In this document: piece by piece, positions 7,001 through 62,856 of the stretch | Layout of the letters: every line of letters starts with the position of its first letter | Position numbering within the stretch: position 1 is the first letter of the stretch | From: Schmidtea polychroa | Taxonomy: Eukaryota | Length of the DNA stretch: 64,000 bases | Direction of reading: 5' to 3' | NCBI GenBank assembly: GCA_044892525.1 | Contig: CM097885.1 | Span: forward strand, 253,084,001-253,148,000 | Translations under genes and position numbers: made by a program | Notes under the pieces: model-generated | Database searches by the model: none | Told to the model about the DNA's origin: nothing | Seen by the model: the letters and a program-made list of their open reading frames with translations, nothing else

Positions 7001-10000
7001 TAAGTTATTTTATAATTGACTACAAAGGCTTCATCTTCTATCTCTAGTATGGAAGATGATGATTGAAGCCAATTTTCAAGCTCATCTAAACTTATTACTG
7101 GTGGCCCGTAAACTTCATTTCTAATCTTGTTTAATTGATTTCTTAATTGTATAGTAGTAGGAACAGGCTTTATACCTCGTTCATGAAAGATTTCTAACAT
7201 TCTCTTAGGTTTTATTTTAAGCTTAAACAACTCTTTAATTAGTTCTTTAGCTTCGTTAGATATTGCAGATTTAGACATGTTTTCTTCATGCTTATGCTCA
7301 GCTTCTGCCCTAAAAAGAATAACTTCGTCTGATCTTGAGTCGTAAAGTAAATGTAATGCAGAATCACATTGCTTGCCTTTAAATTTAACTTGATTGCATC
7401 GATAGTAAACTTTTTTACCATCTTCAGTTTTGTTGGAATAAGAGTAACTCCATATCTTCTCTTCTTTAATTGCATTTTTTGCTTCTTCAGCACTTTTAAA
7501 TACTTTTTCATGAGTCCAAACTTTGGACACTTTTTTGGCTCGTGGTTTCTTTAAACTTGTAACATCAAACTCAAGATCAGACTGATAATCTTCAACTTCT
7601 GCAAAATTATTAGCCATTATAAGTTCAGTATTTGTTTTAATTTTGTTTATAATAAATATATAAACAAAATGATTAGAGTTCTAAGACTTTACGTAGAAAA
7701 ACATACCGCTTTATTGAAAGTTTGTAATAATTGTCGAAAAAAAATAAGATCTAAGAACATCTTAGAAAAAATTAAGATTTATTGATGGATTTTATTAATT
7801 GACATATCGTTTTTTTATTTTACTTTTGACTTGGCATTTATTTATTTTACATAGTTTTTAATTAATTACTTAGCGAATGTATTAAATATCTAGAATTAAT
7901 TAATTAACATAGAAAGTGTTTATAAAATACATAGCGTTTAGTAAAAAATACATAGCGAATAAATAGTTCTCCTGTATTAATAAATTGATTATTATTAGTA
8001 AACGTATGATTTTTTCCCTCTATGTTTCAGTAGGATTATCGAGTTTATAAATAATATTCATTTAGAATCCATTAAGACAACGTTTCGCAATTTTGATAAT
8101 CTCTTTAAGGTTTTAATGTGCTATTTCGTGTTTACATGTTGTGAGATTTACTAATTTATTAATGAATTTGGAAAAATCCAGCGAGAAACAGAAATTAGTA
8201 TAACTGATGAATAGACAAGTTCGCGGTTTTCTAAAGGATTATCTATTAAATTTCGGGTGACGAGTCTGTTCGCTAACAGTGTATTTGGTGGAGTGGCACC
8301 ACTGAATCTTTGCAGTGATTATGAAAGGTGTAAAGCTGTTCATATATAGTTGGTACTGTGTTACATGCTCCATCACAGAACCAACGAGACATAGGTCTGT
8401 GTAACAAGTGCAGATTCGCATCTGTTCCAAGCATAAAAATGCGGTCTTCATCTGCACTGTCAAAAAGAATGAAGTTGTTATCACTCAATGTATTCTGTAG
8501 ATTAGTCTCGATTAAATCTACATCCTGGTAACGAGCCGGTAGAGGTACTGGATTTCATGCTTTGTGTTGTGAACGCCGAATTGGTTTTCCGGTCTGAGTA
8601 ACGTCAATGAAGCACGCCCTTCGTCAGAAACATCTATTAAAACCCTACGTGTGATTTCAGCTATAGGCTTCTGTGTTTATGCTGCTCTTTTCGATTTTTC
8701 TAGGAACTTGTGCGTTATTGCAAGGCATCGTTGGCGTTAATAATTACTGAATTCCTCTGCCGCTGCATTTCAACAAATCTAGTATTCAGAAGTACCATCA
8801 ATACTAAGTTTGTGTCTTTGGTATAAAAACTAAGAGTATACTATCATTCTACAAACTCTAGTATTTTTTACAATTTCCACATTGAACGCTAAATTTGAAT
8901 TAACCCCCTAAGGAGACTTTCAGTTAATTGGCTTTAATATTTTAATATTGCAAAGATTAGCTTTTTTTCTTGGTTGTTGATCGTATTTCATAGTGGAATT
9001 TCAAATTGCTTTGTATATATTGTACTTACTTGAAGTTATTGGCTTTATTAATAATACCTCTTACCGAATTGCATGTCACCAAAAACAACGGTACCGAACT
9101 GTTTGTTACCTAATTGCCCTGGAATGAAATATCACGATAAGAACTTTATTTATTTTTTGATAAATGAACAGTTAACCAATTGTTTCTCTTGTTTCACAAT
9201 GTGGATTCTTTATATTTTGATTAATTATCCGTATATCTAATCAAAAATAATAAACCACTTATTTTCAGTTTAAATAGTAGCAGTGATATGAATAATCAAT
9301 CTCACAGAAAACCTCTAGGAATTCATGATGTTTTCCAAGAGTTGATTTATCAGAGATTAAACCAGGTTTCATAGAGATCTGTCATTAATATTTTGTCATA
9401 ATCAGTCAATCATAGGGATTTCAATTGATTACAAATCCCCCGACTTTGAACCACTCAACTAGCAGCTTTTCTAAAGATATTAATAAAAAAGGTTCTTTCA
9501 AAATAAAGGATAAAAATGTATAATAAAATATTCCAACTCATATCTCTTACCTATTTATTCACAGGCCATTTATAAATTCGGACTTGGTCGCATTTTTCAT
9601 AGTATTCAAATGAAACAAGATCTCATCCATGTTACGCAATATAGTCCTCGGTATTTACTGCGGTTCTTGAGACGATAATTTTCTATGTACATATTCATTT
9701 AGACATACGAATAATTTGCCTGATATCACTTATAATTATTGTCTGAAAATGCCAGACTCCAAGGACTTCATGATGTCCAAAACGAAATTCTCTACTCAAA
9801 TGCTAGAAAAATTCAATTGGAATTATCATGATCATTACATTTTGAATTACGGTGGAAATATCAATGAAAGCACCGACGATATTTGTCGCTACAAATTAAT
9901 TCCAGTAAAAGCGTATTTGCTGTGAAATTATTATTATAACTGCTATTAGTCTCTAAAGTTTTGGCGTAGCAGATTTTATTTACTACCAACACATTCGGCT

Positions 10001-31559: not shown

Positions 31560-32860
31560 ACTATGTGAATATATCTTTTTTGTGCCAGAGTTCTTAAACT
31601 CATCATACGACGAACAAGCTCAAGAATTCTCAACTTATTAATGAGATACATTCGCTTTATTGGGTGTCTTCCTGTGACCCGCAAATAATTGCTCAATTAA
31701 AATTCTGTTGTCATCTTTTCTCATGAACTCAAGAAATTTCCAAACCCTTCAACGACATTATTCGTTCGTCGGTGTCCAGAGAGTTTAGAGTTATAACAGC
31801 ACGTAGTGTTCTCAAATCTTGGTGTTACATATGTCCAGTTATTTCAGATTCTTATTAAACCTATATGGGCTCTTCAATAAATTCGATAAAATCATTAAGC
31901 TCAGGCTGATGAAGAGCCACTAAATCTTTAAAGGTTCTAGCTACATCCTCTTCAGGAATAAATGGTAAACTTATCAATGCAGCAACTAACCCTTGCAAAT
32001 TAGTGTTTTACCCATTACGATATCTCGCAGTCAACCCATTCTCTTGTATTTTTCTCCACAATGATTGGTTGAATTTCATGCTGAATTAGGCAACATGTTC
32101 TTGGATGCCATCTCAAAGTCCATCTTTACTGTTTAAGGTGAAAAAGTAATATTTAATCTGATAGGTGCTTCTTTGAGATGATTAATTATACTTTACTAAA
32201 CAAACCTTGTTTTTCTTAAGCAAAGAACATAAACAAAGTGGGAAGTATAACCTAAAACCTCACAATCTATCGTCTACAGTTGGAGAAAGATTCTTGGTAC
32301 TGTATCAAAAGTTCCATCTGCAAAAATCTGAGTGCTTCCACATAGAGATCGTTGGCCAACATCAGAGTAGAATATGAGAACTCTGTTAGAGTCATGCACG
32401 CCAGAATCAAACCTTAGAAATAAATCACCCTCAAATGTCTTATAATATGGGGGGTGGTGATTAAGCAACTCGAAACAGATGCTGGCAGACTCGATCCTGC
32501 AGAGTTTTGAACTCTTGGCCATTTTATTACTGAGTTTGTTTCGCTCCTATTGTTGGGCGCTTATGGGTGTCACCATTAATTGTGTTAGGGGTACTGACGG
32601 ATTTCGAATTGACTCCTTCCTGAACGCTCTCTGATTATTGTCTTTATCCCATCTGTATACCCATGGCCATAACCATGTTGGTGCTGTATACAATGGTTGA
32701 AAATTCATGAGCAGCTGTGCTCCATTGCTGAAACTACTCGTAATATTCTTATCTTCGGGTCCTGGTAACCCGATAGAAGGGCTTACATCCTCATACAGTT
32801 GTAGCGATAAACATGCATACACAAATCTCTGGTCCAAGTGAGATTATCAAACTTACTTAG
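31560..32860 (-). mobile_element. Degenerate MULE transposase
   Basis: DLFLRFDSGVHDSNRVLIFYS..QIFADGTFDTVPRIFLQL; further degenerate blocks downstream. Confidence 0.75.
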
Positions 32861-33037
32861 GCATTTATCGAACAATTACCTAGACGTTAAATTATAAAAG
32901 AGAAATTAAAAGGAAAATAAAACAGTAAGATGTATTACAATTAATGACAATTACAAATAGTCAGGTAAATCAGAATCCCCATGAATAAACTAAGGTCATG
33001 TACTCAAAATATTCATGCCATACTGACAGAAGAGTAT

Positions 33038-33842
33038 CTAGATAAGGGATGGTGTCAATGAAGCTCTCAACTCATCCGCGGTTGTCACAGTAGTGGTCCA
33101 GAACCCACTTTCCTCTGCTTCTCGCGAATGGTGGATGTCTCCTTCCAGATGCGGATCTGTTAACCAACGGGTGCCGATGCTTGGTATCACCCTAAACGGA
33201 GGTGGTTCAGTTGTTGCTTGAACCGTCTCGAGTCCTGTAGTAGACGGAATACAATTCGAAAACAGAGCGGCCTCGACAACGGCTAAGTCATCTCTTTTGC
33301 GCTTTGAACGCTTGGCGCGATTGAGCCTTTTTCTTTTTGGTCGACCGATCGGATTGGACGTAGACGGATCAATGATAGGCGTCGGTGACTTGACAGCTCC
33401 GATCCTGGTCCAAATATAAACGACATCTGGCTCGATGGAAGGCGAGGAATTTTCGCTATGGTTTAGACAAACCGTCTTTTTCATTGAATTTGGGCCATCC
33501 AGTAAATGTTAAATCGGGAAAATGTTTTACCTGCCGATGATTGTGCACTCGATGATACACGATCGCAACTCGGATTTGGAATAAATCCGTTGAAAGACCT
33601 TTGACTACTCTTTGATGGTGAGCCGCTAGTTGCTCTCTTCCAGCAGGCTGTCCCTGCAGTGCTCTAGTCGTAAGATTTTTCGATTGGCCTCTTTCATTTG
33701 GACCGGGGCGAACCACATCCTCTCCAAATCGTTTTTTAAGGTTCCCGATCTCCAGCTGCATCTTCTTCATCGCGGCATTCTTATCCGCACAAGAAAAGCA
33801 TGGTTTTTCGACCAGATTTCGGTATGTTTGGTTCTGACATTT
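33038..33842 (-). CDS. Unknown spliced ORF, diverged member of the Y coiled-coil/basic family (exons 33842-33531 and 33475-33038)
   Basis: A 55-nt GT-AG phase-0 intron joins the two track ORFs; RPKRKRLNRAKRSKRKR and IPSIGTR resemble KPKRKRLGRNTRDKLKR and VPSIGVR at 53.5-53.9 kb. Confidence 0.45.
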
Positions 33843-35169
33843 CTACAAAGGAGAGATTTACGTAATGATTGTATCATAATTCGGACATTCAGTATGTTGA
33901 CAAGAGATGGCCTATCTTTTACAGGGTTACTAATCACCCATCAGAAATGGTTCGGCGAAATAAGGATCAAGTGAACTGATGGCATCATCACTTGCATTAT
34001 TATCATTATTATCTAGCTATTAAAGTTCTATTGATTCGATATACATTTAGTTATTAAAATACTTTATTATTACCCTATTTATGTACTTATCGTCCCATAT
34101 TTATGCCCTACTTAATTACTTATCATCAACTTACGGGCACCATACTCATTTACTCATTAGAATTTTATTAATACGATATTATCCATTTACAATTTATTAA
34201 AATAGTAGTTATATATTTTCTCATTCATCCATTTCTACACCTATAACAAATAACTTACGCAGGCCAAGGGCAAATTTGATTGGGGATGACGACAAGTTTT
34301 CGGTATTTTAGTGATATTTAATTAATCATTTTATATAATACCTCATTATTCATTTACTAAGGCAGTACTGGTCTAATCATTTAAGGTATTAAGACCCTAA
34401 TTATTCATTTTATTCGCCGTTTATCTATTAATTTTCTCCGAAACACATTCGAGAGATGGCCGTAGGGAAACTGAAACTGTAAAATTCACACTGAAACCTT
34501 CTGTAACGCGATAAGACTTGTGGAGTCTATTTTTACGAGTAATAAGGGAAATTAAATATGAGAATCATCTTAAATTATCAAACTTTTATGAATTCCTTAA
34601 TTCGTTTCACTCTAAATGGGTGAAGACATGAAACGAAGTTCAGATAAACATTACTAAGAGATACGCAATGATACCAGAAGTTTATAGTGGGAGTACGAGA
34701 TTTCCAATTTATGATTATTAAGACTAAGCGTAAACAACAGATCTTAGATTGTTTATTGATTACAATTCGTTTCGCTCATTGGCTCGACAAAACTTTCTCA
34801 CGTATCATAAGGTGGTCGATCCTTGTCGATCTCAAATTTTTCTTTATGTCAATTCCTGGAACTTTTTCAGACCGGAATAAACAGTATGATTTTACTTATC
34901 GTGTGGATCAAGGGTTAGATTCAATAGAAATCGACAATTTCCGCTTGGGCAAGTGTTATACTAAAAGTGATCTCACGACGCCTTTGTTGATAAAGATTAT
35001 TATTCTCTTATTCTTGCTTTGCACGTCTGCACTATCGAGAAGTTTACTTTATCGCTATATCTCCGAAGATGGATATGAGATTACTGGCATAGATTACTGT
35101 AGATTTCCTAATTTCAATGATCGTACGACTTTTAAGTCATCCATTTCAAATCAACTATTCTCCTAGAAT

Positions 35170-37743: not shown

Positions 37744-38357
37744 ATGGTGAGTTTAATTTTTGTATTGTTACATTCTGTTTTAGTTTTATGCTATAAGCAA
37801 TGTTAATTTTTTTTTATTAGCCGATGCCAAAAAGTGCAAAAATTACTCAACATCTTGAGTATAGAATGAGAGCCACACTTCAAGATGGTCGTCAATTGGT
37901 TGGAACATTTAAAGCCTTCGATAAGCACATGAATGTCATCTTATGTGATTGTGATGAATTTCGTAAAGTTAAGAGCAAAGGTTCAAGAGAAGAGAAAGAA
38001 GAAAAACGTTCATTGGGTTTTGTGTTAATTAGGGGTGAACAATTGGTCAGTCTAAATGTCGATGGCCCTCCTCCAACTGAAGATAGTACTAAAACTCCAG
38101 TTTTACCTGGTACTGGTGCAACGGGTATTGGTCAAGCTGTTGGACGTGGAATGCCAGCTTTTACAACAGTAGCAGCTCCTCCACCTGGATTAACCGGTCC
38201 ACCTACTTGGGGCGCTGGACCTCCTGGTAGCATGATGCAACCTCGTCCAATGCTCGCAGGTATGCCACCTGGAGTTCCCGGTATTCCACCTCCACCTTTT
38301 GGAGCTCCTCCCTTGCCACAAGGAGGAAGAGGATTTCCACCTTTTGCTAATCAATAA
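37744..38357 (+). CDS. SNRPB: Small nuclear ribonucleoprotein SmB, join(37744-37746, 37821-38357), 179 aa
   Basis: Sm1/Sm2 motifs [50 protein letters not shown] and a Pro/Gly tail; ATG-only first exon (ATG|gtgagt) as in other animal SmB genes. Confidence 0.95.
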
Positions 38358-40995: not shown

Positions 40996-41569
40996 GATTT
41001 TCTGTGAGATTGGTGATCAATTGGAATCATCATCATCGTTTTTAGAAGTATCGATAGCTCAGATCGGTATTATATGTAAATTAATAAATCATTGTTTATT
41101 ATTTTTTATATTTCAACAATTACATGAGATATTTGCGCTTTACGCACTCGAATTAATGCGATTGTAAAATGCAGTTTTGATTTGATTCAGCCGAGATGAA
41201 ATGAACTTATTTTTCGTACGTTGTGAAACTTTTTTATTGGACAATTTTTTTGATGGATTTTGAATAAATGTTATTTTTCCATATTTTACGAATTGAGTTC
41301 CTATTGTAATGGTTGTGTTTGATTCGTTCATAATTATGTTGATCCTTTAATGTATTGTATCTCAACACGTTGATCTCCTTAGATCTCCAGAATATCCGAT
41401 TAGTTTTACGTGACAAGTTGATGAAGAAACTCGTTAATTGTTTTTTAAAAAATTTCGCAGATCAGCATTTTTGGGACATCTTAAATAAATTAATTAGTTT
41501 CATTTTACAGAAATTTATTAAATTAATGTCGTTATTTGATTTAATATTGTGGTAAGTTACAGGTAATCT

Positions 41570-42190
41570 ACATTTTATCCCGTCTTGTTGCTTCAAACGC
41601 AATCCAGAATACAAACTTTTCTATTCGTCACCCGTTGAATGATTAACGTTGGAACTGTCTGATGGGTGAATACTCGCGAAAAGTGATTGCACATCTGTAC
41701 ACTATTATTCGAGCGTGTTCGTGGACCCCCGATAGATAGTAATTGTCCTTATTTAGGTAACCTTCTCATCGATTTAGATTAGAATTTGGATCTCTCTTGT
41801 ACTAAAATTAATGCTAGTAAATCGATTCGGCACTATAAGTTTGGAATTCCTTGTGAAAGTTGAAATATGCCATGATTCATAATAAAATACCACATAATAC
41901 AGTTTATTTTTATTCACATGTTTTTTCATTCACCTGGTTTGCATTTCTTCTCCTGCCGTGTGGCAGGCATTCTGGGTTCCATCTGACCAGTGACGTGTTG
42001 GTCTACTAAACCTTGATATGTTTGCGTCTCTAGTTGATGAATACGAACTTTTAGGCCTCTGATCTCCACCTAGTCTTGGGTTTCCTGTAATTGTTATTCT
42101 ACCAGTTTACACTTTTGCTCTATTGCATCGGCTTGGAGCCAGGTGCTTTCCATTTTCGGCTGAAGCATCGGTGGAGGTACTCTTTCCATT
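41570..42190 (-). pseudogene. Degenerate second Y-Z unit of the unknown cassette
   Basis: MESTWLQADAIEQKCKLVE*QLQETQD*VEIRGLKVRIHQLETQ (41925-42190) aligns to the 42646-43002 ORF; Z block TVPTLIIQRV at about 41600-41690. Confidence 0.75.
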
Positions 42191-42399
42191 CCTCACCAAC
42201 TAAATGACGGTATCCGATATAATGCCCCATTTAATGTCCTGTTCCACTCTACGTAGGTTCCTAATGTCATCCTGAGCCTGCAAACTTGTCTTTATAGTTA
42301 TCTATTAAAATTTTCAGTTATAATTTATATCGACTTTATATTTAATTTATTATTCATTCTTTTAAGAGTTAGAATAGTAGTGGGTTACAGGTAAACAAA

Positions 42400-42540
42400 C
42401 ATTTTACCTTGTCGTGCTGTTTCCAGCGTAACCCAGAATTAAAGCAATTGATTTCTTCACTTGATACCCGTTGAACAATCAACGTTGGTACTGTATCAAA
42501 GGTTTGAGTACTGACAAAAAGTGAGCATGCTTAGCATACT
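42400..42540 (-). other. Z block of the unknown cassette
   Basis: SLFVSTQTFDTVPTLIVQRV..ILGYAGNST with one frameshift; nucleotide similarity to 53391-53513 and 41570-41700. Confidence 0.7.
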
Positions 42541-42645
42541 ATAATTGTCCAGTACATACAACAAAAACAACTATGTCAGCACAGTAAATATCGAAATCAA
42601 AACAATTCAATTTGGTTGGGCGCTTGGCCCATTTTGCAGCTGCGC

Positions 42646-43002
42646 CTATCGGAATTTTGCCCGAGCGGTCTTGTCGGGTCGGTTCCTCTTTTTTGGCTTA
42701 GTAAGTGATTCAGAACCACGATCGGTTGCGATTATCTCCGCAACGGGTCGGATTTGGGATGCTACATCCTGGTCGATATCTTTCTGATGTAGTTGCGCTT
42801 CCAGCTGTCGAATCCGAAGGCGGAGAGCTTGGATCTCCGTCTGGTCTTGGGCGCTCTGAAGTTGCAACTGTTGGACCAACTTCAGGCGCTTCTGCATTTC
42901 CGTCGGGCAGAACCAAGTACCTTCTAGTTCGCGACATCGTCCTTTGAATTTTATGACTTTTAACCGGAGTTCTTCCGCCTGTTGTTCCATCAGTTTGAGC
43001 AC
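42646..43002 (-). CDS. Unknown coiled-coil protein Y with basic C-terminal motif
   Basis: 118-codon ORF; clear paralog of 53702-54187 (RELEGTWF.P.EM.K, QDQ.EI.AL.LR.R.LE, QIRP, KPKKR); preceded by acceptor taattttag. Confidence 0.6.
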   Translation of the reverse strand: MLKLMEQQAEELRLKVIKFKGRCRELEGTWFCPTEMQKRLKLVQQLQLQSAQDQTEIQALRLRIRQLEAQLHQKDIDQDVASQIRPVAEIIATDRGSESLTKPKKRNRPDKTARAKFR

Positions 43003-43099
43003 TAAAATTACACAAGCATGATATCGACTAATATTAGAATTTGATAAGTGTGATTATATTTTCTCTTCATATATATAAACTTTAATTTTCAGCAAACCC

Positions 43100-43197
43100 G
43101 TTAGTAATTTCTGCGTTTGGTGTCAAAAGGAATTTTATTTGTTTTAACAAAGTACCCTAACTTTCAATTACACTCCGCATATGGGAACCCAATAACA
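43100..43197 (+). repeat. Diverged LTR-tail-like fragment
   Basis: gcgtttggtgtcaaa..aacccaataaca resembles the ends of the 48.3 and 50.1 kb LTRs. Confidence 0.4.
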
Positions 43198-43557
43198 TTG
43201 CAGGTAGGCCTAAAATTACAACATATAGTTCCAATACAAAGGTGTTTTTACGAAATCTGACTCAGAATGAACAGTTTTTCCGTAAATAAAATAAGTAGTT
43301 TAAAATTGGTCTAGGTAAATATACGCAAAATTTCCAGTTGCACTTTTAAGGTTGGCCCATCACGCCGACTATTTCTCGTCTGGTGCAATTAAATTGGTTC
43401 TACCGCGAATAAGTCGGTAGGATAATTAATAATCTACTCAGCCATTCAGGACATTTAATGTTAAGATAATATATTTACTCACTGCATAAACTACATTACC
43501 AATGTATTACATTAGATTCAAAATAAATCACGCGACAGTCTATTTTCCAAAAATCAA

Positions 43558-43776
43558 TCATAGATCACAGTATAAATCGATTTTGGGTTGTACGGATACG
43601 ATATCCCCGTACATCCATTCGTGGATCCGATACCAGATCCATCTGGTACGGAGACGAGTGATGGACTCGTTGTCCTCAAAGACGACCTGATTACCATTTT
43701 CCACTTGGAGTCCATCCTGGTCAAACCCAGCCGTCGAGGTACTGTCCTGAGAAGTGGCTTGCCGTGTTTGAGACAT
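43558..43776 (-). CDS. Unknown ORF X, probably truncated
   Basis: ITRLRTRWIWYRIHEWMYG matches VTRLRTRYIWGHIHRWSQG at 54.8 kb; starts cag-aa-ATG-TCT. Confidence 0.5.
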   Translation of the reverse strand: MSQTRQATSQDSTSTAGFDQDGLQVENGNQVVFEDNESITRLRTRWIWYRIHEWMYGDIVSVQPKIDLYCDL

Positions 43777-43899
43777 TTCTGTTCATAACAACAAGACACA
43801 GTTATTTACTCATTAAAGGATTTACTTAAAACTCTTAGATTTAACTACCGGACCTGAACTCTCAGGGACCCCTATACCCTAATTCTCCCTTCCGCGGTT

Positions 43900-45984
43900 A
43901 TTGCATGACAGTCACCGAATTTAGTTCTCGTTTGTGGCACCGTATGTACTACGATGTTGTTGTAAATAAGACTGGTGCCCTATCTCAGTATTCCATAACT
44001 GAACTCCCTTATCCCTAAGTGTTGTCTTATCTCCTAACAGACTATAACAAGAAAACCCACTTACTATAGCGCAGCCCTTTACTTTTGTCCTTAAATTTAA
44101 ACCTTCTTTAAATTTCGTTCTTGTGTTCAAAATAAATCGCTCCACCCCGGCCCGAACTCTGACCAATCTCTGCCATGAGGAAAAGGTTTCTACATTGAAT
44201 TTTTATTTGTATTTAAATTTATTTGTATTTTCCCCTCTACACTTGCCATTATTGTTATTCTCTTTCGAACCTTCTTCGTCACCTTGTCTTTCACTGCAAA
44301 CCATTTTCCTTTAGCCCACTCTTGTAAATCTCACGATGTCGTTCCATTTTTCTTTCCGAACCATCGCAATTACCAAAGAACGTTCTTATGAAATTGCTCT
44401 GATGATTCCAAGTTCTTCCCTTTGATGTTATTCCAACTCATTTCCAGCCAAGTGGCGTTAAACGGGCAATCGGTTCATCCAACTTTCCTTCAATTTCTTT
44501 TATCACTCGATGAAGCGTGAGATAATCTGCGCCAATCAGTGCTTCAACCGTCTGCTTCTCGTCTACCATGGGAAAATGAATGTTTCTAAGATGCGTCCAT
44601 TTATATTTTTCGCTTGCCCAATTTATCACTTTCATTTCTCCAGTAATGTTTTGTACAGCCAATGCATTGAAATTCTTATTCAATTGTCCATCGTTGCTAA
44701 TTAGCTTCATGGTCACCGGAATCGCCATCATTAGTTGAACATTACCGCCGATAACTCCAATCGATGTCCTCTTTTCAACACCTTTTAATCCTAGCTCATT
44801 TAAAATTCTTAGATTTACGTAACTCACTGAGCTTGCATCATCTAACAAAGCGTTTACTTTTATTCTCTTATTTCCATTTTCCAGATAAATGGGAATAGTT
44901 CTTAAACTGAGAAAACTTCTTGGATTCTCTTCTTTAATTACCTTGTGCGTCGTCATTGTGTTATTTCCTTTTCCACTCTTCACTGTGTTGTCTTTTGTGT
45001 AATAATTCATTGTGTCTTTGATTACATCTGGTAACTTTGAAAAAAGATTCTTTACGACAATCCTTGGCCACGTGATTTCCTTTGAAGCAATTCCTGCACA
45101 GTTTTTTTTCTTTAATGACTTTCTTCCTTTTTGAAATTGCGAGTTGCTTGAACTTGTAACATTGGTCCAGGTAATGTTGATTACCAGATTGTGCACACTC
45201 CTGAAATGCGTGCGACCTCCTTGATTGGAGCTTTCTCTTCCCCTAGACATACCTTCCACTCTTCGCCCATCATAAGTTCTAGTATTTGGTTGAGTCCCAT
45301 AAACGACTTCGTTTGTGGATCTTAAGATCTCCGTTTTTTGTTGTATCCATCTTCTCAAGCCTCTAATATCTCTTGCGATTTCTTTTCTATTTTGTCTTTC
45401 TTCCATTTATAAACAAGATTTGTGGTTAACTTTCCCAAAAACCTTTGAAAAAGACATCCAGTCTTTAATTCGGATTCTTTCCCAGTGGATTTAAATAGAA
45501 CGGTGACTGTTTCCAATAGCCCAACAAACAAATCTAAATCCTTCAAATCTCCTTCTTGAATTGGCCTGAACTTGTCCATCTCCTCTAACATTGACAGATA
45601 TATCCTTTCATCCACACCATATTGCCTATCCAACTTCTCTTTTGCCATTTGATAGGCCTCTGCCGAATACCCTAGATTTTCAATTAGCTTTAATAGATCT
45701 CCGTGAAGGTACTTATGCAGCTGAAACATATTTTCAACATCGTCACCTTCCGCTTCATCAAGACACGCTGTAAAGGCTGCTTTCCTTGGTTCATATTCTT
45801 TCATCCTACCTTCAAAGACAGGTATTGTAATCTTTTGTGGGCTTTCCAGGTTTCTTTTAGGCACTGAATTGTTTTTCTTAATTGTGTCAGCATTCTTATT
45901 TTCATTCTCTTCCTTAAAAGATTGATTTGCCTTTTTTCCCATTAGTTCTCCAATCATTTGATGCTTTCCCTCGATCTCATGCAA
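43900..45984 (-). mobile_element. BEL/Pao LTR retrotransposon gag-protease remnant
   Basis: Gag-like IPVFEGRMKEY..FQLHKYLHG..A.E.LDRQYG; protease VNALLDDASSVSYV..ALIGADYL..IARLTPLGW; degenerate pol pieces to about 43900. Confidence 0.85.
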
Positions 45985-51070: not shown

Positions 51071-52789
51071 AAATTAAATACGTAATGCCTGACGTTTTAT
51101 TGGTAATTATAGGTTTATTTTTAGCTGTCTAATCGCTGGACTTTCGTTATCTTTTATGATGTTATTCTCTTTGGTATAAGGGGAAGCTAACATAGAAACC
51201 AACTATTAAATAAGTTGACATCACGACGAAATAGTAGAAATACTCACACGAAAACGATTACATCTAGAATCTAAGCATCTACAACTATTTGGTGAGTGAG
51301 TTTTCTCAAAATTATGGCATCATCGGTCTATTCTCCAGTCTCTGGGAATAACCTTGGTCTCTGTTATATTAAATAAATTAAACAAAAAAATTAAATAAAA
51401 TCATTTCTCTATCGTCTAAAACTAAATGAAGATAAATCATTTTACTAATAGAATTTTTATGTGACAATATATTTTAATATAATTAGTAAAATAAATAATT
51501 AAATGAATTTCACTTTTTTTGGCCTACAACACTAAAATCTGAATGTAAAAAAATTTAAGATTAATTGGTTTGATCCATTCTTTGTGTTTGTTTGAAGGGA
51601 CTCCCTGAATTAATAATTTCGATTTTAGTGAATGTTTATATAATGGAATTGCTTATTCGATTCGAAACAAATTATTTTGTAGTTTATTCTAATTTCTAAT
51701 GATACCAATAATTATATATATATATATATATGAAGTAAAATTTGCTTGATTTGTTATAGTAATTTATTTTAATCTTAGGTAATGTTATTCAATGTCAAGT
51801 GAGATAATACTGACTATTACCTAGTGCGTGTTACAAGTAAGCTTTATATTTATGATTATGTAATAGTATAAAAATAAATAGTTATATTTTTAAAGTTATC
51901 AAGCAAATAAATTTTAATTTCTATTTTAATATATCGAAGCTTTTATTATAACGTTAATACTGCAGAATTATTTTATAAAATGTGATTTGATGAACTTTGG
52001 TATTTTACAAAACTGCATAAAACAATTTTTAACCTTGATCTGTAATTGCTATTAAGGAATTTACGTTTATTATGTTCATATATTATTTACGAGGCCTCAT
52101 ATGGAACGGCAGTAAACTAAAATGAACATTAACATTTAGATAGTCAAGTTTATATGCGGAAAATAATTGCCACAGGTTCGAGTGTATTTGAAACATATAA
52201 ACAGCTAAATATTGAAAATATACAAAATTATTCTAGTATTTTATTAGTATTAATATAAAATGAGATTGTGCAATCATCTTTTTTCACATTAGAATTCCTT
52301 TTCATTTGTTTCCTTTTGCCTCCATCCAAAAAGGGACCACCACAAGGCCGTGCGATACGTCAATTCAATTTTCTCCAAGTACCATTATCCCTAAAGTTAT
52401 TTTTATCTTTATCAGAAGAGATTTAGCTTATGAGTAGCAATCAATTGGTTATTCAGCTTCCCACCCTCCCTTTCCATCATGCATTCTGCCAACTTTCCAG
52501 TTCTTCTAACAGAGACATTTATATTTCATATCAACTTTCCCAATAGGAAAAAACTTTGCATTTTCAAACTAATTGAATTCCACAAGCGCTACAGCGAGTT
52601 GCGTTAAATAAAGTTTTGTAGGCTATGGCGGAGAATAAGAATACTGATTTTGAAAATAAATAAATAATATAATATAATATAAGTATCTTGTGATTAAACT
52701 AAAATATAAAATAAGATAAATGTTCAGTGATTTTTTAAGACAGAAAAGCTAGACATTAATTTGGAATATACAAATGGCCAAATGATCAA

Positions 52790-53260
52790 TTATTGTATTA
52801 AAGAAATAATCAAAACCAATCCTTTTTCTAGCCATCTATTCATCAAGATAACTTGGCAGTAGTGCTTCGCTTGTTCCATACATATATTTGAACTATTTTT
52901 TTGTAGAACTCCAACAAACTTCAACATTGTTGGTATGAAATCCAGTTATTGGATTTTTATAATGTAAAGAATGATTAACATATTGGTGATCATATGGTCC
53001 CAAAGCAGCAAGCGGTGGAGGTTGAGTATTCATCAGTCCAAATTCTTGTATTAGGTTTAATTATTCGTCTTATGATAGGAAAAAGTGTGTTTCTTTTTCT
53101 GTTGCTTACCAATTACCAATGACAAAATTTAGTGTTCATATATATCGAAAATATCGAAAGCCCATTTTTTTCTTCCTGAATTTCGAGTTGGATTCCCCCG
53201 GTTTGATTTCAATTTCATAAACTTTTTCTCGTCTATCTGACAAGTTACACCTCCACCGAA
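52790..53260 (-). mobile_element. Merlin/IS1595-like transposase remnant
   Basis: TLFPIIRRIIKPNTRIWTDEY..HQYVNHSLHYKNPITGFHTNNVES..YLDE. Confidence 0.8.
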
Positions 53261-53390
53261 TTCAGAAAAATTTGAACACACATGATTAAAATAGCAAAAC
53301 CATTGTATAACCTTTGTCTAATTTTGTTTTTACAACAGTTGTTTTTATAGTTGATTCTCAACTCCTGGTGGGTTACTGGTGGTTGAATAT

Positions 53391-53513
53391 TTAAGTGCTG
53401 TTACCAGCGTAACCCAGAATACAACGTTGTTTTCCTCCTGGTACCCGTTGAGCAATCAACGTTGGTACTGTACCAAGGGGTTGAGTACTCGCAAAAAGTG
53501 AGCGCGTCAAGCA
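53391..53513 (-). other. Z block of the unknown cassette (40-codon open frame after an AG)
   Basis: CLTRSLFASTQPLGTVPTLIAQRVPGGKQRCILGYAGNST*; differences from the two other copies fall largely at third codon positions. Confidence 0.6.
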
Positions 53514-53701
53514 CTGTAATTGTCGAGCACTCTATGGGTTCACGGACGCCGATAGAAGGCACGTGTCCGATTTGTTTCGGTCCCTCATCGAGATTGTTTT
53601 TCCCCAAACGCCTTTCTACCCATCCTCTTGTCTTAAACAACCGCAAAGTTCAATCACATACTCGTTAAACAACAAGAATTATTTATTAAACCACTACTAT
53701 A

Positions 53702-54187
53702 TTACAAAGTTTGTTTACCCAGGAGGGTCGCACTCTCGAACGTCTCTCGGGGTCGTGGATTGGCTTCAGTCTCTTTCAACTTCTCCTGCTCGGCCAGCCA
53801 GGCCCTTTTCAATTTGTCGCGGGTATTCCGCCCGAGCCGTTTACGTTTCGGCTTGCTTGTCTGGGCTGGTGGGTATATTTTGGCTAACTCCACCGGAAGA
53901 GGCCGAATCTGCTCTTGGAGGGCGTCCTGGATGAGTTTTTCATTCAATTTGCTCTCGAGCGAGCGTACTCGTAGCTTCAACGCTCGAATCTCGAGTTGGT
54001 CTTGCTCCGCCTGGGTCTGGAGTTGCGAGATGTGGGTCGTCTGTTTCTTCATCTCGGCTGGACTGAACCAAGTACCTTGGAGTTCTCGATACTTCAGCTT
54101 GAGTTTTTCGACCCGACCTCGGAGACCTTCGGATTGTTGCTGGGCCTGTTCACGGTCCTTTCGTAGATTTTCAAGTAACTGGTACAC
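53702..54187 (-). CDS. Unknown coiled-coil protein Y with NLS-like PKRKRL
   Basis: 161-codon open frame with heptad-like E/Q/K/L pattern; paralog of 42646-43002; begins at acceptor ttctccttcag|TG; AATAAA 15 nt after the stop. Confidence 0.65.
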   Translation of the reverse strand: MYQLLENLRKDREQAQQQSEGLRGRVEKLKLKYRELQGTWFSPAEMKKQTTHISQLQTQAEQDQLEIRALKLRVRSLESKLNEKLIQDALQEQIRPLPVELAKIYPPAQTSKPKRKRLGRNTRDKLKRAWLAEQEKLKETEANPRPRETFESATLLGKQTL

Positions 54188-54501
54188 TGAAGGAGAATAA
54201 TAATAAATTCCATCGCTCGCAACCAGGTGCGCAAAGTTGATTAGAGTACGTGCATGAAATTAATAAGTGGGTGATGAGAAAAGCGTCACCTCAATCATGG
54301 ATACACCTCATTAGCTATAAAGTCCAAAATGTAATAGCAAAAAAAATGATTTAGTGCACTACTGAGATACACGATAGACTATATTGTCAAGATTTATTGA
54401 ACAAAAAAAAAAAAAAACAATTCGTTATGCTACTACAAGGTAAAATATCACTGGATGAAATCAGTCAAAATCATTCCATTCAAGCCGCGATTGTCGATGA
54501 G

Positions 54502-54867
54502 TTAGGCCAGGTTCTTGCTGGGCCTTCCCCGTTTTCGTGGAGGGGTGTCGGTCTCCTCCAGCTCTTTGATAGTTACCCCCAGTGTTTCGGCTTTGAGTTG
54601 GAGCTCGAGTCTCCTCAGCCGTTTTTGGGCCTCCACCACCTCATCGGCCGCTCGATCGCGGGCTTCCCGGAGCACGTTGTTGGTGGGCTCTACTTTCACC
54701 CACGCCGGGGCATCGGGCTCTGGGCCGTTTCGGATAACCCGATTGGAGCAGTCCAGGTCCCGTCCCTGGCTCCACCTGTGAATATGACCCCATATATACC
54801 GGGTCCGGAGCCGCGTTACCATCTGGTCGTAATCTTCATCACCGTTGGATTCGTCAGAGTAAGACAT
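54502..54867 (-). CDS. Unknown ORF X with C-terminal AT-hook-like motif (PRKRGRPSK)
   Basis: tag-a-ATG-TCT start; TRLRTRYIW motif; short coiled coil; AATAAA at 54393-54398. Confidence 0.6.
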   Translation of the reverse strand: MSYSDESNGDEDYDQMVTRLRTRYIWGHIHRWSQGRDLDCSNRVIRNGPEPDAPAWVKVEPTNNVLREARDRAADEVVEAQKRLRRLELQLKAETLGVTIKELEETDTPPRKRGRPSKNLA

Positions 54868-55289
54868 TCTATAATACAAATCTACGTTAGGTCATTTGGC
54901 ACCGACTGAGGTGAGTCACAAGATTTATATTAGCTACCCTTCCCACACGCTAATTCGCCTGCCCTGGTTCTGTATAGTGGGTTCAGCCTCAATCGATGGA
55001 AACGAAGATAGATGGGCGGAAGTAGTGGGTGATATTAAGATATCACTAGCATTTAACTTATCAAACGCAAATGATCTAATTTGAACAGATGTCTCAATGT
55101 ACGAAATCCCCCACATAATAACCAGGTCGCAAAACAAAACATCGGACCACGGAGTTCGTCATTAGAGCCTTGCATTCAAAGCTAATCGTCTTGATATATG
55201 AAGGCATTTAACGGAGTGGTTCGACTGGAAAATTCACTGCCGTTACTACTCAGATTTCTGAACGTATTTCCAATTTAACAGCCTAACAT

Positions 55290-55412
55290 ATTAATTTGGT
55301 AAAATTTACTCTTTAATTAAGTATTTTCTGAAATTACCTAATAGTTGACTGATTAATTTGGTAAACTTTGCACTTAATTAAATACATTCTGAAGTTGCTC
55401 AATAATTGACTT
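55290..55412. repeat. Two diverged tandem copies of an approximately 62-bp unit
   Basis: attaatttggtaaa..ttaattaa..ttctgaa..aata..tgact, twice. Confidence 0.75.
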
Positions 55413-55499
55413 TGTTTAAATTAATCATTTTAATTCAGGATCATGTTTACTTTCAGCCGACGACTCAAGACTTAATATGCGAATTTTTATAATTTTTTG

Positions 55500-57900
55500 C
55501 CTTTAAATCAGACATTATGGTCAATACCACTTAATTCGGGCACATCGGGGCGATTGGTATTAGAGGCGAGCTTAGTTTCTCGTTTGCTTACCTCTCCCTC
55601 GGTTGTGTTCGTCATGAGTGGTATAATCTCCTAGTTTGGAAGTAATTTATGTACTAACTAATAAATTTTCATGTTCAGGTACATTCAGTGGGGATTCTTT
55701 TTCGAACGACGATGGACGATTCTAACTTGGAGATGTTGTCCTACGACTTATTACTAGAAATTCTGCTCGGTGGCATACAACAAGTACACATTTAAAATTT
55801 GCTAATAATAAAGTTAAATATTTCTTTTACTAATGCTTCTATGTTTTGTGTACAGTATACATTAATAATTTATAAAGTTGTTCTTTCACATAGTTCAGTA
55901 ATCGCACTATTAGTCTCTATGCTTTTCAGGTGGTTCCATTTACCTCGATTGATCATCTCAAGTTGTCAAGGCAAGTCTTATCTAGCTCCTAGTTTCTGGG
56001 GAAGCTAAGTTACCTGCTATGTTCCCGTCCATTGATAACCTGGTATTAAATTAAATGGGTATGTACATGTGGGTATCTATATACATCTGCACGTATTTCT
56101 ATTCAAAGTCAATAACCCTAACCTTTTCTCTGGGGGGGGCTGTTACTAAAAATAGATCTCCTTAATTTTCGCTAATTTTATTGGAGGATAGGGTCCTTGA
56201 ATCTAAATTTAGAGATAGGGGAATTCCAAAATTAATACTTTTGTTTAGAGTTTCATGTTTATAAAATGACGATAATTATTTTAACAATATATGAATAATA
56301 ATAATGAAATAGTACTAATAATAAGGACGCTAATGTTAATAAGAATACTACTACTACCACCATTAATGTTAATATTAAGAATAATAATAATAATAATGTT
56401 GAATTTATATCCCTATAAGGCTATCACCGACATGAGGGGGGGGGTCATTCTAAAAAAAAATTATAATTGGTATTTTTAGATATAATCCAAGTTAGGAGTA
56501 TATTAAAGTAAGTTAAATTTTTATATTGTTGCAAATTATATTGTAAATTTGTGGTTTACATTTTAGGAGTCTAAGTTCACAATTCTTATTTCAGGATCAA
56601 TTCCGATTTATATTTCTTCAAATAATTTTTTTTTATACAATATATATAGTTGCAATTTATAATATAATTTGGAATTTATGTACTTTATATATAATTTGTA
56701 GTTCAGGATTAGAGTTTATTTTTACTCTAGATAGATATATAATCTCTGACCTAGCCAATATATACTTTATAATTTAGTGATTTGGAAATACATTTAATTT
56801 ATATTTTATCAATAATTCATGGATATAATTTGACCAATCTGTACTTTGTAGGTTAAGGATTAGGGTACATTATGATTTATATTTTATATATAAGTTATAG
56901 TTGCAATTTATAGTTCAACTAATACACACCTTATAGTTTAGTGAGTAGAATATACTTTATATTTTATAGGTAATTTATAGATATAATTTAACTGATAGTT
57001 TAATGATCAGAATACACTATGATTGATAGTTACAATTTATAGTTCCATTAATATATATCTTACAGTTTGATGATTGAAATATACTTTATACTTTATAGAT
57101 AGTTTATAGTTATAACTTAACTAATAGTTTGATGGTTAGGGTACATTAGGATTTATATTTTACATATAATTTGTAGTTACAATTTATGGTTTCATTAATA
57201 TATGTCTTATAGTTTAATGAGTCGAATATACTTTATATTTTATAGGTAAATTATAGTTGTAATTTAACTAATAGTTTAATGATCAGAGCACATTATGATT
57301 TAAATTTTTTATATGATTTAATTGGTAATATTAATTTCGACTTGAATAGATATGGATAATACAAAGTTTTATTTTATCAATCGAAAAGGTTGTATAATTG
57401 ATAATATTATATTTTTTCCAAAATAATAATACCTCATGGATACCAGTTTATAAGTAATAGTGAGAGGGGTTAGCTATTTCCACAACATGACCTTTGATTG
57501 AGCTGACGTTTTAACTATGAGGTAAAAAGATATAGGTCAATTGTTGAGGAGGTTATAATTAATTGAATCTGTCCCATCATTCACGCCTGCCGAACCTCTA
57601 GATAGTATTATCATAATTGGATCTAAGAAAATCCTTACGTCTTTACAACAATTTTATTTACTAACGATGTTCAGCAAACGTGTATTTGAAGCTGGTTCCT
57701 AGGAATGTTCAACCGACTACATATGTTTAATTTGGGTCTGAGATCTACTCAATTATGATCCTAGTGTGAAGTAGTGTGTGAAATTTTTAATGTTGATTTT
57801 AAATGTGTACTGCATTGGAACTCGGGAAGAACGCTTGCTTACACGGCCCTACTGTGACCGCTACGACAAGCCCTATTGTAATGTTGAGTCGAAACATCAC
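55500..57900 (+). mobile_element. BEL/Pao-like integrase 3' remnant, PPT and long LTR
   Basis: AHRGDW resembles APHWGG.W; LGDVVL..NSARW; G8 tract 56132-56139 then TGTTAC at 56141; right LTR end not fixed. Confidence 0.5.
56630..57320. repeat. Diverged minisatellite, approximately 130-145 bp unit, inside the putative LTR
   Basis: Repeated tagttrcaatttatrgtt..aatatactttatattttatagg..tagtttaatgatcag at about 56895, 57027 and 57172, plus older copies. Confidence 0.75.
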
Positions 57901-59659
57901 TGTCGACCGATAAATAAATATATGGAGCCATAGCGGAGGGGTTTTATCGACACAACTCCATGGTAGAACCATGAAGTGGCCGACCTCCGATGACCGAACG
58001 AAAAAAAAAATATATATATAAAATATATTGCCTGTCTGCCTGTGAAATTGTTAGTTAAAAATTAATATTAAATGCAGGACTAACCAGCGACGCACTAAGA
58101 CGTCGCTGATCAGTCAAAAAGGTAAAAACAAGTTAGGTAGAGGATTAAAATCGATTAAAATCATTAAAATAATTTACATTCAAAACATAAAATACCAATA
58201 TCAATGATGAAAATGATAAACATAAGAAAGGAAAACTACTTACTGTTAGTTTTCTGGACAAAATTTCGTTCAAGAAAATATTGGCATAAAAAGTGATTGA
58301 TTGTGACTGAAACGTGTCAGTATATATACCTATTTTGTACACGTGTATGTATTGATGCATTAAAACAAACTCGAATTCTTTTTATTCCAGAATTTTCTAT
58401 TTCGCGATTTTGATATTTTTAATGGCAATTTTTGTGCCATAATTTTTGTTTTTATTTCTAAAGTTCACATTTTTAATTATTTTTCATTAATTTTACGTCC
58501 ATGATGGATTTGGAACGGTTCCAGAACATTCTATATTACTTTTAATTTAATTTTTTATTTTAATTGATGTTTTATGAATTTCTTTTTAAGAATTTTTATT
58601 TTTATTACTAATCTATTTATTTTTAGCTTTTATGATGGTCATCGCCATTTTTATGGAATGTTCTGGGTTTTTTCTGGAATCTTTTACTGTTTTTACGATC
58701 TTTTAAGTTATTCGAGTTTGTTTTTTATAACTCTATGTTTATTCGGTTATTTTTGAGTTAGATTTTGCATAACTTCTTGCTCTTGTATAATTTTATTTAA
58801 TTTTTGTGTTTATGCTTTTGTTGTTTTCTCCTTTAATTAATATTGTTTATTTGGTGTATTCTTACTATTTAACTATACTTGGTGCTTTTTTACTTGCTGC
58901 GTACCTACACATTTCAGTCACACTTAGTATTTTGGGTCTAAAATCAGTTCTAGCCCAACACTCCATTCAGTTAATTAAACGCAATTTTAGCTAATTCAAA
59001 AAAGCAACCTACTGCTACACCTCTTCCAAATGTGTGTTTTGAATTTTCTTTTTGAGAACGTCAAATCCATTTAAAGGAATTCAAAGATTCAGGTGTTCTG
59101 GTAAGTTTGGCTTCTTTCTCACATATTTCGCATAATAGCCGTTCTCTTATTAACCTGTGTTCAATAAACCATAAAATTGTTTTCATAAAATCATTTATTA
59201 TTCCTGAAAGTCCTAAAAAATCCATAGTTCCAATAAAAGATTTATATTATATATTACATTATTTATTTTCAAAATCATTACTCTTATTCTCCACCATAGC
59301 CGTTTTATATTAATATTTTATCCATTAACCTCTATGGTAGTGAGTTTTGGTATGATGTACATACTTATACGGAGTGAGTTATTTTAATATAAAAATTTAA
59401 AATAAAAAGTATTACATTTGACGACTTCCGACACAATAATCGGGTAAAAAAAAATTAAAACTTACTACTTTTCAAAGTTTTTATTGAAAAATCGTATTAT
59501 TATTTCAGGTGTTTTCAACTATAGGTTGCGGTGTCAAAATATTCGTACCCTAGTTAAAAAATCTTCACTTCACTAAAAGTAATTGAAAACTTACAAAACA
59601 ATTAAAAACACATATAAACACACAAATGAAACAAAAAACATGACTAATAATGTTTTTTA

Positions 59660-59760: not shown

Positions 59761-60409
59761 TTAAAATATTATGGAGGAAAGCTGATAGATGCCATTGGTT
59801 TATCCATTTCTGACGTTTACTTACGATTAAGGTCTGTATGACCACAGCCGTACGGGTAAGGCCATACTAACTTAGAGGTTAAATAAAAATTATTAAAATT
59901 GTAACAAAAATTGTTTTTATTAAATTACAGCAAATTTCAAGTTGTATGCGGTGCCGAAAATAATAATAAATAAAATAATATTGATAATAATAATGCCAAA
60001 ATTTTCATATCGATGTTACTTATTTTATTTCGGACTCGATAGGCAAGATTTTTAGCAAAAATTGAGTTAAATTGCTTTAATAACAATATAACAATATTTA
60101 ATTTGGTAAATTTTAATTTTCAACCATTTTGGCATTATTTATGCATTAATTATTCTTTTTTTATATTTTATTCCATTGTCTGTGATTCTGTCCCCATCAA
60201 TTCCCATGTCTGACGAAGCTTCCCGTTTTCGATCTGGCTTACATTTGGGCATGAGCCCATATTCAAATGTAAATTGAGTTCTTTCGATATTGACATTAAC
60301 GATCAACCTAACATTTTCTTCAACTGTTTCCAAGAAGTTCTCAATTGCCGAATTCAATTTCACTGTTTGCTCCAATGTTACTTCCATATTATGCAGCTTT
60401 TGGGTTCTA

Positions 60410-60646
60410 GGACAAAATGTCACGGACAAAATGTCACGGACAAAATGTCACGGACAAAATGTCACGGACAAAATGTCGTGGACAAAATGTTATGTGGACA
60501 AAATGTCGTGGACAAAATAGACATACTCAGAGTTTATCCGACAATATATTTTGTCCCCTATGGGTATTGGTCACAAAGGTACTGATCACACTCAACATGT
60601 CGCAATGGTATATTATCAACAACATTTATACCATGACATTTTGTCC
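60410..60646. repeat. Eight tandem 14-16 bp ggacaaaatgtc-xx units plus one inverted copy (60635-60646)
   Basis: Direct reading of the sequence; resembles TE subterminal repeats. Confidence 0.9.
60522..60605. mobile_element. Truncated, diverged copy of the 62476-62647 foldback element
   Basis: gagtttatccgacaatatattttgtcccctatgggtattg..gtactgatcacactcaacatgtcgcaa matches one arm plus the loop in reverse orientation. Confidence 0.8.
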
Positions 60647-62325: not shown

Positions 62326-62856
62326 ACGGTGAAAGTAGATATTGTGGCAAATGTACACATTTTCCGGTAAATGTGCACATTAGCCTCCTCATTTGGGTAA
62401 TGTGCATTAAACTAACATTTACAATTTCAAATAAGGGAAATGTACATTGAATTATCGGTTCTTGTTTGATATATCAATAAAGACCATATACTCCGAGTTT
62501 ATCCGACAATATATTCTGTCCCCCTATGGGTATTGCTAGCAAGGGTACATGTTGCGACATGTTGAATGTGACCAGTACTCTTGCTAGCAATACCCATAGG
62601 GGGACAGAATATATTGTCGGATAAACTCGGAGTATATGGTCTTTATTGATATATCAAAATACTCTTATTTATAAATTAACTAAAACATTGGATATTTATA
62701 TATTTAATTTTAATTTAATTGTAATTTTAAGTGGGGGAAATATCAAACAAGAACATACATATACATTATATTCAGTTCACTTATACCTAACTTTTTGGGA
62801 AATGTACACATTTTTCGGTAAAAGTGTACATTTCCCAAGATTGTACATTTACCGTA

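Follow-up and report, generated by a model that had tools for sequence, protein, structure and literature searches.

Two genes under purifying selection and a conserved non-coding end segment in the long terminal repeat of a giant Burro-type retrotransposon of Schmidtea polychroa

In the 64,000-nucleotide stretch of Schmidtea polychroa DNA analysed here (the window), three closely packed minus-strand units, X, Y and Z, raise the question of what kind of genetic unit they belong to and what each of them may do. The initial annotation, made from the letters of the window, had described them as a cassette richer in GC than the host. The results agreed with this, as GC content was 58.5% in X, 52.6% in Y and 48.1% in Z, compared with 30.5% in the window. 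The main features of X and Y were also recovered: X (121 aa) is an intact open reading frame with the motifs TRLRTRYIW and PRKRGRPSK, and Y is an open frame carrying PKRKRL and a coiled coil, with no ATG at its start. An acceptor-like AG precedes each of them (54870-54869 for X, 54188-54187 for Y), and each is followed by AATAAA (54398-54393 and 53687-53682, respectively).

The cassette had been thought to lack termini, a target-site duplication (TSD), reverse transcriptase and capsid genes, and this view did not survive. We found that X-Y-Z occupy the final 1.5 kb of an LTR of 5,595 bp on the minus strand, which opens with TG at 58960 and closes with CA at 53366, the cassette end. Because GGAG stands at both ends of this TG...CA unit, the window copy is a solo LTR with X-Y-Z as its tail, and the element to which it belongs is a giant Burro-type retrotransposon. 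The coordinates of all features are given in Table 1.

Table 1. Features of the solo LTR and of related remnants in the window
Feature	Position	Strand	Description
Solo LTR, giant Burro-type Ty3/gypsy element	53366..58960	-	TGTTGGG start, CCCACCA end; 95-98% identity with the LTR at either end of full-length elements
Target-site duplication GGAG, upstream copy	58961..58964	-	
Target-site duplication GGAG, downstream copy	53362..53365	-	
TATA box of putative LTR promoter	58321..58328	-	kept in families A and B; TATA + TCAGT in family C
Putative leader exon 1, ~55-65 nt	58244..58308	-	last base A at 58244; donor GTAAGT from 58243
GC-rich block, nucleotide-level conservation, predicted folded RNA	57815..58000	-	z = -3.0; second donor-like GTAAGC at 57842
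Variable AT-rich middle, putative intron	54871..57800	-	129-147-nt tandem units at 56849-57307 (repeat family D1)
Gene X, 121 aa	54502..54867	-	own ATG 1 nt past acceptor AG; Trp-rich helix, coiled coil, AT-hook-like motif at the C terminus
Gene Y	53702..54186	-	160 codons, preceded by TG directly past the acceptor AG; long coiled coil, EGTWF-type motif, basic helix at the C terminus
Z, near-invariant 3' end of LTR (U5 end), non-coding	53366..53600	-	
Bulged stem-loop in Z	53434..53479	-	8-nt bulge between a lower stem and a 6-bp upper stem; predicted signal in RNA
Decayed LTR remnant, related family	41550..43780	-	truncated X, Y, Z + second Y/Z remnant; cut upstream by BEL/Pao-like fragment
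Decayed LTR remnant, family C	32645..33850	-	one Y-related gene with own ATG, then Z-type hairpin 32647-32701; X absent

The genome was then searched for further copies. A DNA search gave at least 41 matches from the 40 scored of 3,115 candidates, and most of them stop at window position 53366. In protein searches, all 150 scored candidates matched for X and likewise for Y, giving lower bounds of at least 150 copies each; the X protein matches were at 73-100%, with an internal stop listed in six. The LTR repeats of the family designated A are 5.0-7.1 kb long with TG...CA ends, and their pairs are 99.3-99.8% identical. Of 30 LTRs for which a single locus contained both ends, 19 had an exact 4-bp TSD and one had a TSD with one mismatch, while a motif resembling a primer-binding site (PBS) followed six and internal DNA preceded four. 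An exact TSD was present in 19 of 20 solo LTRs, and one full element was bordered by ATAG. Around the window copy itself, 43-nt inverted repeats (93%) lie at 52621-52663 and 59259-59301, and a frame at 52896-53018 weakly matches an ISXO2-like transposase (E 0.038); the solo LTR appears to sit within a decayed Merlin-like DNA transposon.

Many genome copies are direct pairs about 30 kb apart, and in three such pairs, with repeats 99.3-99.8% identical, very long frames lay between the repeats. The paired LTR copies enclose gag, env-like and pol frames, and two full elements measured 35.7 and 35.8 kb. In one element, Pfam identified CCHC knuckles, MATH, a mononegavirus-type fusion glycoprotein, protease, RT, RNase H and integrase, together with ankyrin, TRAF fingers and BIR-RING; gag came before protease, RT, RNase H and integrase (PR-RT-RH-IN) in that order. 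The same TGG-containing motif, which may match a tRNA-Pro end, followed six of six 5' LTRs. Four 3' LTRs had an identical 8-nt flank, and a clear purine run directly before the 3' LTR was not seen in the one element inspected (L034:4480-4845).

Burro1/GYPSM1 elements are giant gypsy-like planarian elements of more than 30 kb with an internal part of up to ~25 kb, and contain CCHC gag, MATH, PR-RT-RH-IN, ankyrin and BIR, with an env-like fusion protein placed between gag and protease (PMC6431247). The present element likewise exceeds 30 kb with an internal part of ~25 kb, carries MATH, BIR and ankyrin, and has env between gag and protease. By this comparison of size and domains, it is of a known kind, that of the planarian Burro/GYPSM1 giants. 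The BCL2-like, SUMO-like and dUTPase motifs of Burro1/GYPSM1 were not found in it by Pfam at E 0.01; some of these motifs had been detected with HHpred (PMC6431247). Section 7 of that paper deals with internal ORFs only and does not mention genes, introns or RNA structure in the LTR, and PMC8532177 and PMC11410931 add PIWI control and abundance.

Beyond pol, we also noted accessory ORFs (L033, L034, L042) that encode TRAF fingers, BIR-RING, a 533-aa product and a product of ~255 aa. These four ORFs start 0-3 nt past an AG, AWTAAA lies no more than 200 nt beyond the stop in three of the four, and together they resemble a row of alternative last exons. One element contains a 5.7-kb internal duplication (L043/L044, G000:C1:99546273-99560076; 99.98%), which is either recent or an assembly artefact.

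Whether X and Y are genes was assessed from dN/dS among copies, a check set beforehand. With 23 of 33 copies aligned (the other 10, mostly near-identical or partial, were omitted), dN/dS in frame was 0.25 for X and 0.16 for Y, compared with 1.0-1.9 in the other frames, and third codon positions were about twice as variable as first and second positions. By family, the values for X were 0.24 (0.18-0.32, 14 copies) and 0.30 (0.22-0.41, 12 copies), and those for Y were 0.14 (0.10-0.20, 11 copies) and 0.17 (0.12-0.22, 12 copies). All of these ratios, 0.14-0.30, are well below 1 and all 95% intervals are below 0.42, with a downward bias from retrieval by protein search and, for the by-family set, from the choice of intact frames. 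On this codon-level evidence, X and Y are coding genes, and purifying selection acts on them in each of two families. Among 19 young copies, rare changes likewise gave a low ratio (0.30 and 0.38) and did not separate selection at the element level from selection at the host level. The motif AWTAAA, which is frequent by chance in AT-rich DNA, occurs within 250 nt past X in 16 of 16 family A copies and in 4 of 15 other copies, lending weak support to a poly(A) signal there.

The Trp-rich helix, coiled coil and RKRGRP-type tail of X are kept across families, as are the long coiled coil of Y, interrupted by an EGTWF-type motif, and its basic helix. Of 23 X copies, 20 matched the AT_hook profile (PF02178) weakly (best E 0.011); the window copy scored 11.3 bits against a Pfam cut-off of 17.4 and has S where R is usual. 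X thus resembles AT-hook proteins in keeping an RKRGRPRK-type motif in families A and B, but it differs from them in having a single motif, below the cut-off in the window copy, and an otherwise unmatched sequence. Searches of 5.8 billion proteins with X and Y gave no match at near length, and the Y profile had one match among 1.84 billion representatives, an unnamed 157-aa family B read-through on a 638-nt contig. The X profile had no match among PDB sequences, and Foldseek at E 0.001 returned none for X against PDB and viral structures or for Y against viral structures. The predicted models of X and Y are helical with low pTM (0.31 and 0.35, respectively), and the atlas matches of the Y relative, all below 170 shared features, were generic coiled coils. 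X and Y therefore have no known family, sequence relative or fold in the libraries searched; a hit to a known transposon protein family, considered earlier, did not appear for either protein.

Z gave a different result. It had been taken for a 40-codon block, but it showed no codon periodicity, it contained indels of 0, 1 or 2 nt immediately past its AG, and its pS was ~0.04 compared with 0.37 in X/Y; Z was about eight times more conserved than synonymous sites. By these measures Z is a non-coding cis-element and not a third ORF. Within it we predicted a bulged stem-loop, for which 93.6% of cells were paired across 23 of 35 distinct versions from several families, and 67 double changes were counted compared with 25 +/- 4 in shuffles (0/500), although kinship among the sequences inflates these measures and the bulge letters belonged to the search pattern. 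The number of pairs with double changes was not significant (36/500 shuffles). At this level of evidence, the compensatory changes show covariation of a conserved non-coding segment.

Bulged stem-loops serve as signals in other retroid RNAs, among them HBV epsilon and HIV TAR. The Z hairpin is like these in having two stems, a one-sided bulge and a place near the 5' end of the putative genomic RNA; unlike them, it has no match in Rfam at E 1. A further LTR family (L200:1201-1255, L213:8374-8428) carries the Z hairpin with different stem letters. In family B the predicted folded GC-rich block upstream is replaced by another, with complementary arms closing it.

Comparison of LTR families showed how far this arrangement extends. 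Family B, a second young family, has X, Y and Z in the same order as family A, with protein identity of 37-44%, and its LTRs surround a gag 93% identical to that of family A. Family C has a single Y-related gene of ~245 aa with its own ATG; no full-length partner was found for it, and a pair 45 kb apart is a segmental duplication. Homologs of the cassette had also been proposed elsewhere in the window. The one at 41.6-43.8 kb was borne out, with the start of X, Y (46% identity), Z and a second Y/Z remnant, whereas that at 33 kb has a Z-type hairpin and no X, and its Y relative is distant, with a profile probability of 93% over 24 columns when compared with an intact family C copy. A family C solo LTR at L194:3660-7790 has the TSD GATG, and the last 20 nt of its leader are repeated at the end of a short first intron. 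In L021-L030, identity of 92-95% over X-Y-Z gives way to unrelated DNA upstream from at or just inside the X start; this break indicates that LTR modules are exchanged between subfamilies.

To place X and Y within a transcript, we examined the layout of the LTR. Positions 58960-57724 and 54871-53366 are conserved across subfamilies, and the middle is unalignable. We infer that U3 extends from 58960 to about 58310, where transcription would start. In copies that are related by descent and so do not count as independent events, the last base of the leader is A in 37 of 37 distinct copies, with all four letters occurring before it, and TG comes directly after the Y acceptor in 40 of the 41 copies having the AG, with a variable next base; 7 of 48 Y copies have no AG at the expected place. 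All 100 genome matches of the leader end continue with G. For X, nine different spacers separate the acceptor from its own ATG, and in family C, whose gene has its own ATG, the base before the donor is G in 3 of 3. Since the leader ends in A and the Y acceptor continues with TG, splicing would create an ATG for Y, and the start codon of Y is likely completed in this way. A leader ATG that is open and in phase with Y was found in 10 of 11 parsed copies of family B and in 2 of 11 of family A.

The first candidate for the Y start had been the ATG at 57897, joined through the donor at 57842 to give 18 codons plus 1 nt and a hydrophobic N-terminal anchor. Neither donor nor phase varies among the 15 family A copies displayed, but the family B block differs and has no such frame, and a Leu codon would not call for the G that 40 of 41 copies retain past the acceptor. 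We rejected this ATG as the Y start and consider it quite improbable in that role; its product could be a minor isoform in family A. Junctions were also sought in other data. No genome match had either donor replaced, with 100 sites for the leader donor, and this lack of processed copies fits both copying of unspliced RNA only and an absence of splicing. Contigs of six sequencing runs, which are uninformative on expression either way, showed no joint at the predicted junctions; one joint, 54191-54694, was read as a diverged genomic copy, as it keeps intronic letters with unknown letters between.

Taking these results together, we propose with a probability of about 0.7 that X and Y are selected genes expressed by alternative splicing from the LTR's own promoter, and that the non-coding Z forms the LTR end and contains a predicted hairpin. 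Transcription would begin near 58300, and the leader would have two alternative partners: X, whose ATG is its own, and Y, in which the leader's A and the TG past the acceptor would make the start codon. Both mRNAs would end at their AATAAA signals ahead of Z and the primer-binding site, and therefore only unspliced RNA running through Z, the genome, could be copied back into DNA. Alternatively, X and Y could lie in U3, so that only their 3' LTR copies would be expressed, through long-range splicing; the genomic start would then fall between Y and Z, and solo LTRs would be silent for both genes. A transcribed R-U5 of ~4.9 kb with introns would be unusually long. There is also a precedent in MMTV, whose sag gene lies wholly within U3 (PMC3621094). 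However, TATA box, leader and donor are conserved 4 kb upstream of X in three families, the last base of the leader suits the need of Y, and between Y and Z no conserved TATA-leader unit was seen, AATAAA aside, so that expression from U3 appears improbable.

The functions of X and Y were read from their motifs. In the proposed splicing arrangement, a 4-kb intron-bearing leader in the genomic RNA would demand control of splicing and export. X combines a coiled coil with an AT-hook-like tail, and Y combines one with a basic helix; like the regulatory proteins encoded by complex retroviruses, both could be nuclear and act on the element's own DNA or RNA, influencing transcription or letting unspliced RNA escape. 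The basic helix of Y is kept across families, and the leucines of Y are as consistent with a coiled coil as with the export signal of a Rev/Rec/Rem-like protein. We give an even chance to the idea that X and Y regulate the element's own transcription or RNA fate. The initial annotation had already suggested nuclear proteins with an accessory or regulatory role in a mobile element or endogenous virus, which fits X and Y, but it had called the element undescribed, which does not agree with the Burro/GYPSM1 size and domains.

With the same anatomy, X and Y might instead act on the host, in apoptosis, ubiquitin signalling or piRNA silencing. The other cargo of the element (MATH, TRAF zinc fingers, BIR-RING, ankyrin) is host-directed, Y is largely a generic coiled coil, and BURRO1 is a PIWI target (PMC8532177), all of which fit such a role. 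However, no host domain was detected in X or Y, their basic tails, resembling nucleic-acid-binding ones, are kept across families, and both genes adjoin conserved RNA elements; we regard a host-directed role as the main alternative, possible but on the unlikely side. A host gene family spread by lineage-specific duplication, also put forward before, would account for the purifying selection and the low ratio in the 19 young copies, but this ratio can be explained by exchange between subfamilies, X being visibly mosaic. Sharp LTR ends, TSDs and gag-pol partners, with the copies examined at a fixed place in the LTR, make that origin highly improbable. Returning to regulation of the element by X and Y, a more speculative extension, which we consider rather doubtful, is that this Ty3/gypsy lineage independently evolved the control known from complex retroviruses within its transcribed LTR. 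X would then be an AT-hook activator and Y a Rev-like protein with a start codon made only by splicing, both acting on LTR RNA structures, and hundreds of solo LTRs would be two-gene units acting in trans on the family and the host.

Retrotransposon LTRs are normally non-coding, solo LTRs are usually regarded as inert scars, and accessory genes in or at the LTR are familiar from HIV (nef) and HTLV (tax/rex). The arrangement described here resembles that of complex retroviruses in that small accessory ORFs lie within or beside the LTR and are accessed by splicing (here predicted), with basic motifs and structured RNA nearby. It differs in that X and Y apparently lie downstream of the LTR promoter, so that a solo LTR could express both, and in having two genes in a Ty3/gypsy element without sequence or fold similarity to the retroviral ones, among which Rem and Rec are export proteins (PMC3621094). 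The kind of element and retroviral LTR-borne accessory genes are thus known. The literature searched, which did not include the original Burro paper with its supplements or Repbase, gave no account of genes in Burro LTRs and no splice-made start codon in gypsy elements; the original description or its supplements may already annotate the X and Y ORFs. What the present data add is a very abundant, recently active element whose 5-6-kb LTR contains two orphan genes and a pair of structured RNA blocks, with X and Y retained across families only ~40% identical in protein. If the splice model is true, it would provide exact junctions, start sites and RNA targets for the balance of spliced and unspliced RNA in an enveloped giant Ty3/gypsy element, and solo LTRs would be protein-coding units in a regeneration model organism.

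Other features were observed elsewhere in the window. A MULE transposase lies at 6418-7617, an intronless LSM-domain (SmB-like) ORF at 37824-38357 and a BEL/Pao gag-like fragment (DUF1759) at 44438-45957. Beyond the solo LTR we found a 14-nt tandem array at 60396-60520 and an 84-nt inverted repeat (99%) at 62465-62658, with related arms at 60523-60605.
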